From contig DASQGZ010000034.1 of assembly GCA_035632315.1 (NCBI GenBank), positions 12,693 through 76,692 on the forward strand: a stretch of DNA of 64,000 nt. The letters run 5' to 3'. The position numbers and the translations under genes are program-made. Below the pieces are notes generated by a model that made no database searches, had not been told where the DNA came from, and saw nothing but the letters and a program-made list of their open reading frames with translations. Within the stretch, counting starts at the first letter, position 1; each line of letters opens with the position of its first letter. Positions 2,571 through 57,500 of this stretch are shown in pieces. The DNA comes from Candidatus Kapaibacterium sp. (lineage in GTDB: Bacteria > Bacteroidota > Ignavibacteria > Palsa-1295).

Positions 2571-2572
2571 TG

Positions 2573-2646
2573 TAGCGGGGGAGGGATTTGAACCCACGAC
2601 CTGCGGATTATGATTCCGACGCTCTAACCAACTGAGCTACCCCGCC
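2573..2646 (-). tRNA. tRNA with CAT anticodon (elongator tRNA-Met, or tRNA-Ile2 if lysidinylated)
   Basis: Reverse complement GGCGGGGTAGCTCAGTTGGTTAGAGCGTCGGAATCATAATCCGCAGGTCGTGGGTTCAAATCCCTCCCCCGCTA folds as a cloverleaf with a 7-bp acceptor stem, D-arm GCTC/GAGC, anticodon loop ATCATAA, T-loop TTCAAAT and discriminator A; two stem mismatches (27-43 and 50-64); CCA not encoded. Confidence 0.6.
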
Positions 2647-3786: not shown

Positions 3787-5022
3787 TTACGGAATGTCGT
3801 ATGAACATCGTAACTCATTCCTTCGCTGCCACACGGTTTCGTACGGCGATGCTCCGACCCATTTATCTTCACTGGTGTACCCTGCTTTCACTGCTTCGAT
3901 CTTTTCAAGCATGAATGACGGCTCTTCGGGAAAGAATGTACCAAGTTCTTTTGCAGAGTAATATGGATGAAGTCCGGCAATCACTGAATATGGGTTCTGA
4001 GATCTCAGCACAAGTGACCATGTTCGCTGTTGGATCGGTTGTGCGATCCCGCTCTCAAGTGAGCCAAGAGCATAATCGCGAGCCATATATGTATATTTAT
4101 GTATAGATTTTACAGCCGGTATTTCATAACGAACTCGTCTGCGTGAACGAACGATCTCAGTACATTCGAACGAATTGTTTCGTTTGTGTGCAATCTCGCG
4201 AATGATCTCCGGAAGAACATACGATGTGGCAGCGACAAATACGATATCAGGAAGAATATGAGTTATAGAGTCTTCAAAAAAATATTCTCCGTACGAGGCA
4301 GCTTCTGTATTTGACGGCACAAGCGTAGATTCATTTGCGTCACGTGAATGCGCCCCGCAGTAACTTCCCCCAAGATATTTCACGGAATAATTTGCCAGCA
4401 GATATTCGAGCATCATTTCGGATTTACTTCGAATTGCCGAATCGCGGCTGTATTCACTAAGAAGAACGAGTGGTGTAATATAATAATATAAATAACGAGG
4501 AGAATCGAACTCTGTCATCCCTGTTCGAACAGTTTCATGTATCCAATACAGAAGCCACTCTTTCGATTCTGCGTTGATCTCCTGTGAAGAACGACCCATA
4601 AACCATTCACTCGCATCGAGAGAATCCCACTCCTCGCTGAAAAGAAATAAAGATCCGTAATACATTAAAAAATGATTTTCCGTATCTCCGCGATATGGGG
4701 TAAAATGCTTCCAACACTCACGGATCTTTTGTTTATAGGATACGGGAAGAATATTTTTACATGAAAAATAGAGTCCGGCACAGCCATACATCCAAAACAT
4801 ATCACCATATTCACGGCCTAATAATGTGTCAAGCTGCCCGTACGCAAGCTTAGGGTTTATTCCTTCGAGTAGCTTTGCCGTCACTGCCGAAAATGTCGGG
4901 TGATATTCTGTCTGCGCGATCTTTTCGATAACCTCAAATTTAATTGCGTCAGACTGCGCATACGAAGTCTTGCATAATATAATACAAATAGTAAATATAA
5001 TGATATATTTAAATGGAGTCAT
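3787..5022 (-). CDS. secreted hypothetical protein
   Basis: 411 aa with signal peptide MTPFKYIIIFTICIILCKTSYAQ; stop overlaps the start of the upstream gene (ATGA at 5022). Confidence 0.6.
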   Translation of the reverse strand: MTPFKYIIIFTICIILCKTSYAQSDAIKFEVIEKIAQTEYHPTFSAVTAKLLEGINPKLAYGQLDTLLGREYGDMFWMYGCAGLYFSCKNILPVSYKQKIRECWKHFTPYRGDTENHFLMYYGSLFLFSEEWDSLDASEWFMGRSSQEINAESKEWLLYWIHETVRTGMTEFDSPRYLYYYITPLVLLSEYSRDSAIRSKSEMMLEYLLANYSVKYLGGSYCGAHSRDANESTLVPSNTEAASYGEYFFEDSITHILPDIVFVAATSYVLPEIIREIAHKRNNSFECTEIVRSRRRVRYEIPAVKSIHKYTYMARDYALGSLESGIAQPIQQRTWSLVLRSQNPYSVIAGLHPYYSAKELGTFFPEEPSFMLEKIEAVKAGYTSEDKWVGASPYETVWQRRNELRCSYDIP

Positions 5023-51319: not shown

Positions 51320-51393
51320 AATTTGACGTGCAAATTACGAACCGGCCGAGTTTTCCTCGTAAATTTGCACTCTTATACTCAACTTCGGTAATG

Positions 51394-51858
51394 AAACTGA
51401 TCACCTATCTTCGCCCGGAATATATCGAGATCGGCTTAAACGCTGCATCGAAAGACGAACTCATCCGTAATATGGTCGATATCGCCGCAAGAAATCCGAA
51501 CGTTCAGGATAAAGCGAAAGTCCTGACCGCGATCACCGAACGCGAACGTATTATGAGCACGGGCGTCGGCAAAGGCTTTGCAATCCCACACGGAAAAACA
51601 GATGCCATTTCCGACATTGTTCTTGCATTCGCTGTCACTGCCGAACCTGTCGATTATGCATCAATGGACAGCGAGCCGGTACGATTGGTCCTGTTACTCG
51701 TCAGCCGCGAAAGCGATGTCGGCGTGAGATTAAAACTTCTTTCACGCGCATCGAAAGTGATGAACTCCGATACGACTCGTAAAGCCCTGCTTGATGCGAA
51801 AACGAAAGAAGATATCCTCCGCATACTCGGCGACGAAGAAGAGAGGATCGGCGATTGA
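51394..51858 (+). CDS. ptsN: PTS EIIA-type-2 nitrogen-regulatory protein (PtsN-like)
   Basis: LITYLRPEYIEIGLNAASKDELI...GKGFAIPHGKTD. Confidence 0.7.
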   Translation, partial: KLITYLRPEYIEIGLNAASKDELIRNMVDIAARNPNVQDKAKVLTAITERERIMSTGVGKGFAIPHGKTDAISDIVLAFAVTAEPVDYASMDSEPVRLVLLLVSRESDVGVRLKLLSRASKVMNSDTTRKALLDAKTKEDILRILGDEEERIGD

Positions 51859-53163: not shown

Positions 53164-53922
53164 ATGGAACCGTTACCGCCAGTAAAAGAAGTCGAATACC
53201 GCTGTATCATCGGCAAGGATTTCGACGAAATAATGGGGCAGGAGTACACAACCTTCAGCTTCGAAACAGCAAAGGAATTCTCGAGCTTCCGCTACGAGAT
53301 CGCCGTTCGCTATAAGCTCGAAGGCTCGAATATCACGTTCCGTGTGCTTGGTATGACGGCCACACGAATGATGATGCCTGCATTCGGGACTGCGCAATCG
53401 GTTCTGAAAGTCCCTCAGCTTCAGCCGGGGAAATACACCGTTACATTCGTTAAAAGCGATAGTAATGCAACCGAATTTTTTCTTGAGGTGACCAAACGTG
53501 GTTTGCAGATCGTCAAACCGATTCCCCGCAAGCGCTTTATTGACCTTGTCATTAAAGGCGAAGCGGCTGCTCATACGCCGAAAGCAGTCGCGTCAACGAT
53601 CTCGAAGTCGCCGCATGCGCCGCTCGTACCTCGAACGATCCAAAAGCGCCCGCCCCCCCCGACCCCGGAAGAACTTGAGATATTAGCAGCTTTGAAAGAC
53701 GAAACCCCTGAAGAACGCGATGCCCGCGAGGAACTCGAGCTCTTCGGAAGGCGCGCAGCAAGGAAGAAAGCAGTGGCTGCAAAGGCGAAGAAGTCCCATA
53801 AGCCATTGAAAAAGAAGGTGAAACCGGCAACCAAGAAAACGAAAGCAAAACCAAAGGCAAAGCCCAAAAAAGCTAAAAAACCTGTGAAAAAGAAGCCTGC
53901 TCCTAAGAAGAAGAGAAGATAA
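53164..53922 (+). CDS. hypothetical protein with C-terminal lysine/alanine/proline-rich histone-H1-like tail
   Basis: 170-aa globular N-terminal domain, Pro-rich linker, tail KKAVAAKAKKSHKPLKKKVKPATKKTKAKPKAKPKKAKKPVKKKPAPKKKRR. Confidence 0.55.
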   Translation: MEPLPPVKEVEYRCIIGKDFDEIMGQEYTTFSFETAKEFSSFRYEIAVRYKLEGSNITFRVLGMTATRMMMPAFGTAQSVLKVPQLQPGKYTVTFVKSDSNATEFFLEVTKRGLQIVKPIPRKRFIDLVIKGEAAAHTPKAVASTISKSPHAPLVPRTIQKRPPPPTPEELEILAALKDETPEERDAREELELFGRRAARKKAVAAKAKKSHKPLKKKVKPATKKTKAKPKAKPKKAKKPVKKKPAPKKKRR

Positions 53923-54064
53923 AACGTGCACAAGGATCAACAAAAATTTGAAATTTTGGGCACTTTATTGAAAAAAGCTGTATTTTCGCCAGTGGGATGA
54001 TGCAAAGTGTATCAACCCATTTGTGTACCCTTGCACCATTATTCATTTAATTTGGAGAGATACG

Positions 54065-54250
54065 ATGGAGCGATATAATGAACTCAAAGCACTGCTCGAA
54101 AGCTTCGAACCGGATTTCGAGAAGTTTTATGTTAAAGGCAATAAGTCCGCGGGTGTTCGTGTCCGTAAGGCTATGAACGAGTTGAAAAAGAAGGCCCAGG
54201 AGATTCGCATCGAAGTCCAAAATATGAAATCGGCCGAAGCGAAAGGCTAA
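54065..54250 (+). CDS. histone H1-like protein Hc1-family small DNA-binding protein
   Basis: KGNKSAGVRVRKAMNELKKKAQEIRIEVQN matches the Hc1 N-terminal domain (KGNKAAAQRVRTESIKLEK); start placed at internal ATG (MERYNEL). Confidence 0.6.
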   Translation: MERYNELKALLESFEPDFEKFYVKGNKSAGVRVRKAMNELKKKAQEIRIEVQNMKSAEAKG

Positions 54251-54328
54251 CCTCAGTTCTTTCCAAACTATTAAACCCCTTCCAAATGTACATTTGGAAG
54301 GGGTTTTCAATAGTATTCGATACTGCGA

Positions 54329-55198
54329 CTACTGAACAAACGCCAATGGCAGTGTTGCAGAATTACTGCCGGCAATGACTCGTAGGTAATACATTCCGTC
54401 AGATAAGCCGCTGCGGATAAACGGGATCATATACGAGCCCGCAGAATATGTGCTCGAAACAAGTTTCTCGACTTCCCTGCCTGTTATATCATAGATCGCG
54501 ATCGTTACCGGAGCGCTCTCACTCAAAGAAAGATGAATGGCACTTTGCTCCCGGATCGGGTTCGGAAATACCGATACGTTAAATGAAGATGCTGCCTGAT
54601 CCGGAATGCCTGAGTGCACGTCACTGTATGCGAGGTCATCAACTTCAAACCAGCTGCCGACATGGGGTGTCGATGAAGTCTTACCGCTGATCAAGAAAAT
54701 GACTGTCATTGTATCCGGAACCGTCAACGGGTCGAGATATGTATAGGGCAAACTCAACTGAGACCATTGTGAAACCTCCGTTGCTGAACGTATCGAAATG
54801 GCTCCGACCGGAGTTGAGGATTGCTTTGTCAGCGTCGATGCGATCGAAAGGACATCTCCGCTATCCGAATGAAATTTTATCCACATCGTAAGTGCAACGA
54901 CACGATGATCGACTCCCGAACCGGCATTGGCGGCGGTTGTATTGAAAAGCAGTGGCGGATATGGTGTGCCGGAAAATTGCACAACATCCCCGCGAGCCGC
55001 AAGCGACCCGCCGTGCGCATCTGTTGTGGATGATACGTTCGTGACCGATCCGGGGATATTCGATGTAGCCCAGTTGTCCGGATCACCGCCCGTCCAAGTC
55101 TCGAAGCCGGCATTAAGAATTTGTCCGTAATTCGCTTTGGGGAGGCATATAACGATGAGTACACAAAACAATAATTTTCTCATTAATAACTTTTCCAT
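54329..55198 (-). CDS. secreted hypothetical protein with T9SS C-terminal sorting domain
   Basis: signal peptide; CTD ...YSAGSYMIPFIRSGLSDGMYYLRVIAGSNSATLPLAFVQ. Confidence 0.6.
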   Translation of the reverse strand: MEKLLMRKLLFCVLIVICLPKANYGQILNAGFETWTGGDPDNWATSNIPGSVTNVSSTTDAHGGSLAARGDVVQFSGTPYPPLLFNTTAANAGSGVDHRVVALTMWIKFHSDSGDVLSIASTLTKQSSTPVGAISIRSATEVSQWSQLSLPYTYLDPLTVPDTMTVIFLISGKTSSTPHVGSWFEVDDLAYSDVHSGIPDQAASSFNVSVFPNPIREQSAIHLSLSESAPVTIAIYDITGREVEKLVSSTYSAGSYMIPFIRSGLSDGMYYLRVIAGSNSATLPLAFVQ

Positions 55199-55334: not shown

Positions 55335-57500
55335 TCAGAATGAATGATGCACGATGCCCTTCGTCACTGTCATCCCTTCCGATTGTAATCTGCACATATA
55401 GACTCCATCCGCAAGATGCAGGCTTGCCGCATCGAATGAGATCTCGTGCTCGCCATTTGTTTGAAATTCGTTGACAAGCGTTGCGATCTCTTTCCCCGTT
55501 ATGTCTAACATATCCAGTCGAACAAGAGACGACAAAGGAACAACGTACCGTATGGTCGTTTCACCGGCGAACGGATTCGGATAGTTCTGCACGACCGAAG
55601 CATCCCAAGCAACCGGCACAGGCATAGTTACCCCACTTTTGCTCGGTCGTTGAGTACGGTAGAGCCCTGAACCCGTCGTGCCGGCATAGGCTATCTGATG
55701 CGCAGCGTCGTCATACATAAATGTCGGCGTACTTGCAAACGGGAACGTAGCTGCAAACCAAACAGAACCTCCGCTAGAGGAGGTTGACATTGCTGTCGCG
55801 CTCGCTGCGATCATAAAGAGACTCGGAGATTCTATGACAAGACCTGTAATATTCTTCAATGACGATGATAATGTCAACCAGCTCGCTCCGTTGTTGTTCG
55901 TATAATAAACACCATCAGCATTCGACGCATAGACATACCCAGTCGTACTATGAGCTGTCACTGCAAGGGGATTTGTGACAAGATTAGATGACAATTGCCA
56001 CGCATCGCCGTTGTTCGTTGTGTAATACACGCCTGATGTACAAAATGCAAATACATATCCTTGTGAACCGACGGTCAGGAATTTGATCGTATCCTGCGGG
56101 ATGCCGCTTCGCTTAATGCTCCAAGATAAACCGTTATCGATCGACCGATAGACCGTTCCGTTAAATCCGCCGAGAAACACTGTGCCGGAAGGCGTCACAC
56201 ACGATGCACGCATCAATGTTTTATTGATCCCGATGAGAAGCGAACCGGCTGTAATATCCGTCCAGGTATTGCCATCGTCAGTTGAATGATAGACTGCCGT
56301 TCCGAAAGCCGTCGCGTATAATTCGGTTGCGCTGGTCGCCGTGATGGAAGTAAAATTATGCGAAACGAGTACATCGCTTTGCACCGGTAACCAAGTATCG
56401 CCCTGATCGACCGAGCGGTATAATTCTGCGGTATCCGCCACAGCAAAGATATTTCCGCTGCTATCGGCTCCCATCGCCTGCACGGAGGCAGTGATCATAC
56501 CTTTACTACTCGGATTCCAAGTTTTGCACGTATCATGAGATGCAAAAACTCCGTTCTTCGAGAGCCCTTCAAAAAAATCCGAGTTTTTTCCTAAAAGACA
56601 GAGTGCATTATCGACGTCTGCAGTTGCCGCACGCACCGATTTCCAGGAGGCACCACCATTACGGGAAAACCACAGACCGGCTCCGCCGCTAACAAGGATG
56701 CTGTTGCCCTCATCGGTCGCAACTTCTGTGCCTGATGTAATATTCAATCCTCCGGTGCCGGAAATAATATTCCAGGAATTCCCGCTATCTGCCGAAGAAA
56801 AGATCCCTGCCTGGCTTGTTGCATACAGAGTTCCGGCAGCAGAGACTGCAATTGCGGCAACAACTTGTGGGAGCGATCCGGTGCTCACATTTGTCCATGA
56901 ACTTCCTTCATCTGTCGAACGAATCAGTCCGCCTGCGGTAATACCAAAGACTGAGCCGCTTGGTCCGCGGAAGAGCCGTGTGACCGGGAAAAGATCGGTC
57001 ACTCCGGGTTCGACCGGAATTCCATTCGTCGAATTACTCCACGACGTTCCCTGATTGCTTGAGCTGAATACGCCTGCGCCATAAGTTCCGACGATTATTG
57101 TTCCGTTCGAATTAACGGTAATCGAAAGCAAACTTGGTGCTGTCAGTGACGCGACCTGATTCCATGTTACACCTTGATCGGTCGATTTATAGGCGCCGGA
57201 ACTTGTCACAGCATACGCAACTGTCCCCGCAGGATCAAATGCAATAGCACTCTGCGAAGAGAAATCGAATGATTGGCTCGACGAAGTCCAGCTCGCGCCT
57301 TTATTCGTTGTCCGAAATACTTGCTTTGAAGCTGCAGCGAGTACGACGTTTCCTGACCCTTTTGCGAATGTCCAGACTTGCGCCCCTGCAGGACCTGCCG
57401 TCTGTTCAAATGTTGTTGGTTGTCCAAACGAATCGCCTGTAATTACCAACAAAGACAGAGCCATCACGCCAAAAAACGAATGTAATTTCATACTGATCAA
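55335..57500 (-). CDS. secreted multi-BNR/Asp-box beta-propeller protein with T9SS C-terminal sorting domain
   Basis: 721 aa; at least 12 SxDxGxxW boxes; CTD ...LHLADGVYMCRLQSEGMTVTKGIVHHSF. Confidence 0.7.
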   Translation of the reverse strand: MISMKLHSFFGVMALSLLVITGDSFGQPTTFEQTAGPAGAQVWTFAKGSGNVVLAAASKQVFRTTNKGASWTSSSQSFDFSSQSAIAFDPAGTVAYAVTSSGAYKSTDQGVTWNQVASLTAPSLLSITVNSNGTIIVGTYGAGVFSSSNQGTSWSNSTNGIPVEPGVTDLFPVTRLFRGPSGSVFGITAGGLIRSTDEGSSWTNVSTGSLPQVVAAIAVSAAGTLYATSQAGIFSSADSGNSWNIISGTGGLNITSGTEVATDEGNSILVSGGAGLWFSRNGGASWKSVRAATADVDNALCLLGKNSDFFEGLSKNGVFASHDTCKTWNPSSKGMITASVQAMGADSSGNIFAVADTAELYRSVDQGDTWLPVQSDVLVSHNFTSITATSATELYATAFGTAVYHSTDDGNTWTDITAGSLLIGINKTLMRASCVTPSGTVFLGGFNGTVYRSIDNGLSWSIKRSGIPQDTIKFLTVGSQGYVFAFCTSGVYYTTNNGDAWQLSSNLVTNPLAVTAHSTTGYVYASNADGVYYTNNNGASWLTLSSSLKNITGLVIESPSLFMIAASATAMSTSSSGGSVWFAATFPFASTPTFMYDDAAHQIAYAGTTGSGLYRTQRPSKSGVTMPVPVAWDASVVQNYPNPFAGETTIRYVVPLSSLVRLDMLDITGKEIATLVNEFQTNGEHEISFDAASLHLADGVYMCRLQSEGMTVTKGIVHHSF

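Follow-up and report, generated by a model that had tools for sequence, protein, structure and literature searches.

What are two proteins, encoded side by side in the genome of Candidatus Kapaibacterium sp., to one another and to the genes around them? The pair occupies positions 53,164 to 54,250 of a 64,000-nucleotide (nt) stretch of contig DASQGZ010000034.1 (assembly GCA_035632315.1; the whole stretch is referred to here as the window), and a preliminary description of this DNA had read it as two nucleoid-compaction-type proteins that may form a chromatin-like module. Both open reading frames (ORFs) exist as described there: ORF1 (53164..53922), whose product and family are here called X, and ORF2, which encodes a protein of 61 amino acids (aa). 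The chromatin-like module itself is not what comparison of related genomes points to; the best explanation is instead that the two genes belong to two independent predicted transcription units, ORF1 being the last gene of a conserved operon composed of a PtsN-like EIIA gene, hisS and X. The features of this putative operon in the window are as follows.

51328..51858, plus strand: stand-alone, PtsN-like PTS (phosphotransferase system) EIIA-2 gene that opens the conserved EIIA-hisS-X block; Pfam PTS_EIIA_2, 112 bits
51855..53117, plus strand: hisS, canonical bacterial histidyl-tRNA synthetase; Pfam tRNA-synt_His plus HGTP_anticodon
53164..53922, plus strand: ORF1 (X), 252 aa, Kapabacteria member of a family of hisS-coupled beta-domain proteins not previously described; C-terminal tail H1-like
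53194..53553, plus strand: all-beta globular domain of ORF1, residues 11-130, nine strands; the part common to the ~135-aa Ignavibacteria proteins
53554..53649, plus strand: Kapabacteria-specific linker of ORF1, residues 131-162, with the terminal invariant motif L-x-P-R-T-I-Q-K-R
53650..53751, plus strand: acidic segment of ORF1, predicted helical, residues 163-196, net charge -7, ending ..EELELFG with invariant F194
53752..53919, plus strand: histone-H1/AlgP-like polycationic disordered tail of ORF1, residues 197-252, recognised by composition and low predicted local distance difference test (pLDDT) scores

Linkage of X to hisS

Eighty related loci were gathered, all of them by searching from X and not from hisS, and the genes for histidyl-tRNA synthetase (HisRS), EIIA, Lgt and Hc1 were placed within them by tblastn. 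hisS lies directly upstream of X, on the same strand, in every one of the 77 loci that carry enough upstream sequence for this to be testable, and a stand-alone PTS EIIA-2 gene is found 5' of hisS in each locus that reaches far enough, with the single exception of L036. The genes that flank the EIIA-hisS-X block vary from genome to genome, and include those for RuvC, YajC, RibBA, sensor kinases and proteins of the type IX secretion system (T9SS). The linkage of hisS and X has been kept across the divergence of Ignavibacteria and Kapabacteria.

The spacing of the two genes in Ignavibacteria-type loci is most often -4 nt (17/28), an ATGA overlap of start and stop codons, with -23 nt in a further three loci and -1 to +18 nt in the remaining eight; such start/stop overlap implies translational coupling of hisS and X, which we regard as probable in Ignavibacteria. 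Gaps in Kapabacteria run from +5 to +231 nt, that in the window being 46 nt. Reading of the window sequence also reveals that the EIIA stop codon (TGA, 51856-51858) is overlapped by the start of hisS (TTG 51855 or ATG 51858). Downstream of X, the Ignavibacteria-type loci (L035-L064) carry lgt, the gene for prolipoprotein diacylglyceryl transferase, in directly 3' and sometimes overlapping position, giving the order EIIA-hisS-X-lgt; lgt no longer adjoins X in any Kapabacteria locus.

The window EIIA protein matches the NCBIfam PtsN and fruA models, both at scores under the cut-off, and retains the IPHG active-site histidine motif. Its longest ORF begins at GTG 51328 and encodes 176 aa, 21 codons beyond ATG 51391; the latter is probably the true start, since it yields a protein of 155 aa, as called in homologues. 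An Rfam and tRNA scan of the window identified no leader RNAs, T-box elements or tRNA genes near hisS.

The beta-domain of X, its arm and its tail

The preliminary description had divided ORF1 into a 170-aa domain and a basic tail. The tail (56 aa) stands, but the domain is shorter than was proposed: its folded part comprises residues ~11-130, and is followed by a conserved motif and then by the acidic segment. An AlphaFold2 (AF2) model built with a 40-sequence alignment has a mean pLDDT of 87 and a predicted template modelling score of 0.73, with residues 11-130 above 90 and arranged in nine beta strands. As the preliminary description had it, this N-terminal domain is uncharacterised. At E<=1 none of the Pfam or NCBIfam families matches ORF1, which has no homology to AlgP, phasins, HU or Hc1 outside the tail; searches of Pfam, NCBIfam, PHROGs and PADLOC with ORF1 and the Ignavibacteria-type members returned nothing; and among PDB sequences profiles A2 and A4 found nothing beyond chance matches (E>0.1), with no solved analogue of the domain among the PDB structures searched. 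X is a cytoplasmic protein with a novel, beta-sandwich-like domain of ~120 aa, whose family is unannotated and missing from every library searched.

The extent of the family was established with a profile of the N-terminal 162 residues of ORF1, searched against 1.84 billion representative proteins. This identified 145 representatives at E<=1e-3, most of them stand-alone proteins of ~130-140 aa that match profile positions ~9-132 with E values of 1e-21 to 1e-4. A second search, using the mixed alignment A3, returned 221 proteins at E<=1e-5, all 'hypothetical' and none with a Pfam domain, whose named sources are Ignavibacteriae, Ignavibacteriales, Bacteroidota and Kapabacteria metagenome-assembled genomes (MAGs); reciprocally, profile A3 scores window-type proteins at ~1e-38. 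The family alignment is gap-poor across the domain, with F39, Y44, G63 and G75 invariant and E11, Y12, T35, F42, A77, F105 and F125 nearly so. Three candidates (P0220, P0314 and P0337) were rejected as members, these being TIG, GEVED and PEGA immunoglobulin (Ig)-like repeat proteins with long, multi-stretch profile matches. Ig-repeat proteins share with the family just a G-x-Y-x-V-x-V hairpin at profile positions 77-111, and because the similarity is confined to this hairpin we treat it as motif-level and non-homologous.

A polycationic disordered arm or tail is mandatory in every form of X, but the end that bears it is switched between the two classes. Ignavibacteria-type proteins have an N-terminal basic arm of ~13 aa (e.g. 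MKKGKRVKPKFP), with a median charge of +5 (range +2 to +7), and are without a C-terminal extension, whereas in Kapabacteria the N-terminus is invariant and slightly acidic and a C-terminal extension carries a median net charge of +23. Kapabacteria X has lost the N-terminal arm and gained a long C-terminal extension made up of the PRTIQKR motif, an acidic helix and an H1/KPAA-like tail. In a few proteins (P0212, P0231, P0247 and the L057 protein encoded at 3971..4408) N-terminal R/K/P/S-rich extensions of 22-60 aa replace the usual arm; these are independent elaborations of it, at the opposite end from the Kapabacteria tail.

Close homologues of ORF1 number 94, share 58-100% identity with it, and derive from MAGs of Kapabacteria, Ignavibacteriota and Bacteroidota; all are named "hypothetical protein" and none has a precomputed Pfam domain. 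Their N-terminal region, which starts MEPLPPVKEVEYRC, is nearly invariant. In the linker, columns L154, P156, R157, T158, I159, Q160, K161 and R162 are invariant in alignments A1 and A2, and the motif that they form (..PLVPRTIQKR, to residue 162) is absent from Ignavibacteria-type members. For the acidic segment that follows, the first AF2 model predicts two helices at low confidence, residues 168-177 and 182-194. The segment ends E-L-F-G in the window and DDDALF(E/A) in relatives, F194 being invariant. It looks like a candidate short linear interaction motif, loosely reminiscent of acidic-hydrophobic tips such as the C-terminus of single-stranded DNA-binding protein (SSB) or clamp-binding motifs, although folding back of the segment over the basic tail is another possibility.

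The tail of ORF1 contains 26 K, 4 R, 11 A and 7 P among its 56 residues (79% K/A/P, net charge +30, zero acidic residues) and is the only K/R/A/P-rich stretch of 30 aa in all six frames of the window. With pLDDT values of ~45-53 in the first AF2 model, it is long, disordered, K/A/P-dominated, strongly cationic and acid-free, as H1-like tails are, and the H1/AlgP-like character assigned to it in the preliminary description is borne out. Literal AKPAAKPAAK (KPAA) repeats occur in a relative, P0437; the window tail contains KAKPKAKPKKAKKP, and at the DNA level its tandem repeat amounts to just 2.2 copies of an 11-nt unit and is non-significant. Every full-length homologue from independent assemblies carries a net positive, K/A/P-rich C-terminal extension (88-185 aa), variable in length and in sequence.

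The preliminary description had itself raised the possibility that the tail is a frameshift artefact, to which an assembly error may be added. Low complexity is all that speaks for this, together with the potential for spurious ORFs evident on the opposite strand, where several F-, L- and G-rich minus-strand ORFs of 86-120 aa lie across the tail within 53552..53943; these simply mirror the AAG/AAA/GCA-rich coding strand and do not represent genes. Since the same in-frame layout, with conserved composition, recurs in every full-length homologue, whether its assembly comes from NCBI, JGI, ENA or Logan, the artefact explanation is already refuted, and we give it virtually no weight.

A more substantial alternative is that ORF1 encodes a nucleoid-associated, H1-like protein that binds or compacts DNA, its tail coating the DNA in the manner of Hc1, Hc2, HupB or AlgP and its linkage to hisS reflecting just growth-rate-coupled expression. 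The composition of the tail matches those of the DNA-binding tails of Hc1, Hc2 and AlgP, relatives contain KPAA repeats, and in the window's subclade an Hc1-family gene stands beside ORF1. Orthologues from Ignavibacteria, however, occupy the same hisS-coupled position with no tail and only the 13-aa basic arm, making bulk DNA compaction unlikely as an ancestral function; moreover, KPAA tails bind RNA too, and no DNA-binding fold was detected in the ORF1 domain. On balance we consider this alternative unlikely, whilst regarding it as the most serious one.

The two classes of X also evolve at different rates. When pairs of genomes are compared at a HisRS identity of 50-60%, identity across the X domain is 68% in Kapabacteria and 34% in Ignavibacteria; at 60-70% HisRS identity the corresponding values are 78% and 49%. 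The X domain thus evolves two to three times more slowly in Kapabacteria than in Ignavibacteria, and in Kapabacteria is more conserved than HisRS itself. Because it is slower than both, we infer that, when Kapabacteria acquired the long tail, the function of X tightened or shifted at the same time.

The Hc1 mini-protein downstream of X

The second gene of the pair, and the elements that appear to delimit it, are listed below.

53979..53988, plus strand: TGTATTTTCG box in the ORF1-Hc1 spacer, conserved, resembling the Bacteroidetes -7 promoter element
54065..54250, plus strand: ORF2, 61 aa, Hc1-domain-only 'histone H1' mini-protein; Pfam Hc1
54267..54314, no strand assigned: terminator-like hairpin, core 54276-54303, CCCCTTCCAAATGT/ACATTTGGAAGGGG, then TTTTC

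Assignment of ORF2 to the Hc1 family, as first proposed, was confirmed by the Pfam Hc1 model PF07432, which it matches with 80.2 bits (cut-off 23.5, E 9.9e-23) over model positions 1-56 of 57, with KGNKSAGVRVRKAMNELKK at residues 24-42. NCBI already lists a protein of 100% identity, P0095, under the name 'histone H1 [Candidatus Kapabacteria bacterium]'. Homologues number 111 in all, each with PF07432; the 110 besides the identical one are 44-84 aa long and come from Kapabacteria, Ignavibacteria and Bacteroidota assemblies. A PDB sequence search with ORF2 returned nothing.

Chlamydial Hc1 has a conserved N-terminus responsible for dimerisation and a Lys-rich C-terminus that binds DNA (PMC2848022). 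ORF2 resembles this protein (HctA) in possessing a full-length N-terminal Hc1 domain, KGNK..RVR core included, but unlike HctA it is just 61 aa long, lacks the Lys-rich DNA-binding C-terminal half, ending 5 residues past the Hc1 domain, and has a net charge of just +4. Nor is it an HctA equivalog, which would have two domains, a length of ~120 aa and a DNA-binding, Lys-rich tail at its C-terminus: ORF2 scores 19 bits against a cut-off of 100 for NCBIfam NF051889 and matches only model positions 8-52 of 121. With the DNA-binding tail absent and the HctA cut-off failed, a role for ORF2 as a nucleoid compactor would be an extrapolation. By its sequence ORF2 appears to be an ordinary stand-alone protein made up of the Hc1 N-terminal domain. 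Such proteins are common in Kapabacteria, Ignavibacteria and Bacteroidota and have been annotated before; there is nothing new in ORF2, and public annotation already has its name.

ORF1 and ORF2 are separated by 142 nt when ORF2 is read from ATG 54065, and by 100 nt from the alternative start GTG 54023, rather than by the ~60 nt of the preliminary description; the ATG is preferred because homologues measure 60-63 aa. Adjacency was assessed in the 38 distinct Kapabacteria-type loci that have >=600 nt of sequence downstream, and an Hc1 gene follows ORF1 in six of them (the window, L001, L006, L007, L008 and L080), whilst none of the Ignavibacteria-type loci has Hc1 next to X. These six are the window's closest relatives, with at least 77% identity to it in the ORF1 N-terminal domain throughout. 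One of them, L006 (CAYOJJ010000019.1), is titled 'uncultured Alphaproteobacteria bacterium' and carries a Kapabacteria-type RuvC/EIIA/hisS/X/Hc1 block whose proteins share 72-80% identity with those of the window; this bin has probably been mislabelled.

Across the six loci the spacer between X and Hc1 measures 142-187 nt and contains a sole conserved block, GAAAAA..TGTATTTT(C/T/A)G, which lies ~75-95 nt 5' of the Hc1 start and includes the box at 53979-53988 of the window. The consensus of the Bacteroidetes -7 promoter element is TAnnTTTG, and because the TGTATTTTCG box resembles it, the box is probably the -7 element of a promoter belonging to ORF2 itself. The hairpin at the other end of the gene, between ORF2 and a convergent gene ending at 54329, folds as RNA with -26.6 kcal/mol (z = -6.2; 0/200 shuffles fold as well). 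By eye, similar hairpin-forming sequence follows Hc1 in L001, L006, L007 and L008, with none evident in L080. A scan for sigma-70 promoters and terminators was uninformative in this Bacteroidota-like host, and missed the hairpin after ORF2. With its own spacer box and its own hairpin, ORF2 looks like a separate monocistronic unit and a recent arrival beside ORF1.

These observations bear directly on the suggestion that ORF1 and ORF2 constitute a two-component chromatin module, in which, for example, the dimerisation domain of ORF2 would work with the Lys-rich tail of ORF1 in the manner of a split chlamydial Hc1. The genes are on the same strand, 142 nt apart, they adjoin one another in six related loci, and between them they mirror the dimerising N-domain and the DNA-binding tail of chlamydial Hc1. 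Adjacency is nevertheless absent from 32 of the 38 Kapabacteria loci and from all Ignavibacteria loci; the tail of X is older than the adjacency; Hc1-only mini-proteins (60-84 aa) are widespread without X; and, besides the promoter-like box and the terminator of ORF2, the order of the two parts is tail and then N-domain. Synteny, in which hisS and not Hc1 is the conserved partner of ORF1, largely refutes a chromatin module, and we rate one as highly improbable.

Further downstream, the genes at 54329..55198 and 55335..57500, both on the minus strand, encode secreted proteins with T9SS C-terminal sorting domains. In the former this is recognised as Por_Secre_tail by Pfam; the latter, on visual inspection of the sequence, reads as a BNR/sortilin-like repeat protein. 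Both fit with a host of the Bacteroidota group. The sole RNA gene detected in the 64 kb is a tRNA-Met (CAT) at 2572..2646 on the minus strand.

A proposed role for X, and comparison with known systems

We infer from the above that X is a polyanion-binding accessory protein, the polyanion being probably RNA or DNA, that is co-expressed with HisRS. The arm or tail would bind the polyanion non-specifically and so tether to it the conserved beta-domain, which in turn would supply the specific function; this is probably a protein-protein contact, because the conserved polar residues of the domain are acidic. The preferred target is RNA (tRNA, mRNA or the ribosome), which would give X a translation-linked role alongside HisRS. 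This choice is favoured because the sole constant genomic partner of X is an aminoacyl-tRNA synthetase (aaRS) gene and because the KPAA tail of PhaF binds mRNA, but it is a tentative one, to which we would give somewhat less than an even chance. The KPAA disordered region of PhaF binds RNA (mRNA) and activates translation (PMC12818456), and the KPAA C-terminal domain of AlgP tethers polyphosphate (polyP) granules to DNA (PMC9239181).

Several considerations weigh against this proposal, in which both nucleic-acid binding and contact with HisRS are putative. The HisRS of the window is a complete enzyme with nothing visibly missing; over residues 4-410 it aligns collinearly with stand-alone bacterial HisRS (S. 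aureus 1qe0 and E. coli 1kmm), and the idea that X supplies a missing HisRS module was rejected in view of this collinearity with solved bacterial enzymes. No HisRS-X fusions occur among the 145 and 221 profile matches. The conserved polar residues of X are mostly acidic (E11, E22 and E38) or structural, which is unlike an RNA-binding surface and points to contact with a protein or a ligand, and a strict HisRS-cofactor model has to contend with the finding of no OB-type (oligonucleotide/oligosaccharide-binding) tRNA-binding fold in X: the domain gives no match to OB-fold tRNA_bind (PF01588), and its fold is not OB. Gene order can, furthermore, persist without a functional link, and the loci were all seeded from X. 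Finally, DNA, RNA and polyphosphate are all bound by K/A/P tails, which leaves RNA only weakly preferred over DNA.

Taken to its furthest, the proposal would make X a dedicated HisRS partner of Ignavibacteria and Kapabacteria, translationally coupled to the enzyme and using its arm or tail to capture tRNA or other RNA in trans, with a previously unseen beta fold; in Kapabacteria, where it is long-tailed and slow-evolving, it would possibly link translation to the nucleoid. We consider this version quite unlikely. If true, it would establish X as a bacterial counterpart of the eukaryotic aaRS cofactors, which bear Lys-rich tRNA-binding appendages; we know of no accessory protein of a bacterial HisRS. 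A family that has no domain-library entry or PDB match, and that shows tight and persistent linkage to hisS, is in any case a specific lead that lends itself to testing. The family also amounts to a natural experiment on H1-like tails, one class having a 13-aa basic arm where its sister has a K/A/P tail of 90-290 aa, and the coincidence of tail gain with a large drop in rate bears on bacterial KPAA-type disordered regions such as those of AlgP and PhaF.

Of known systems, Pseudomonas AlgP and PhaF resemble ORF1 in build, each combining a specific N-terminal module with a long, K/A/P-rich, disordered polycationic tail. Their tails bind DNA, polyP-associated chromatin or RNA, and the AKPAAKPAAK repeat is found literally in some ORF1 relatives. 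This modular likeness is also what recommends a further alternative, that X, like AlgP and PhaF, anchors to the nucleoid a polyanion other than nucleic acid, or an inclusion body (polyphosphate or storage granules, for example). X has, however, no phasin or AlgP homology, and its conserved neighbourhood (EIIA, hisS and, in Ignavibacteria, lgt) contains no ppk or pha genes; a granule tether therefore appears very unlikely. ORF1 differs from AlgP and PhaF in its unrelated all-beta N-domain, in the compositional, non-repeat nature of the window tail, in having hisS as its partner, and in the invariant PRTIQKR motif and acidic helix that precede the tail.

H1-like tails are also present in mycobacterial HupB and other nucleoid proteins. 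ORF1 is like HupB in that a lineage-specific K/A/P tail has been placed on an older, widely conserved small domain, although this older domain is neither HU nor another known DNA-binding fold.

The preferred reading of X, as a polyanion-binding accessory protein working alongside HisRS, draws on a third comparison, with Arc1p, Trbp111 and EMAPII, which are trans-acting aaRS cofactors with Lys-rich tRNA-binding regions. X differs from these in lacking the tRNA_bind OB-fold, and in being encoded beside a HisRS that looks self-sufficient and to which its binding is putative. It nevertheless shares with them a small, non-catalytic form, association with an aaRS gene and a basic segment, and it is on this likeness that the preferred hypothesis is based.

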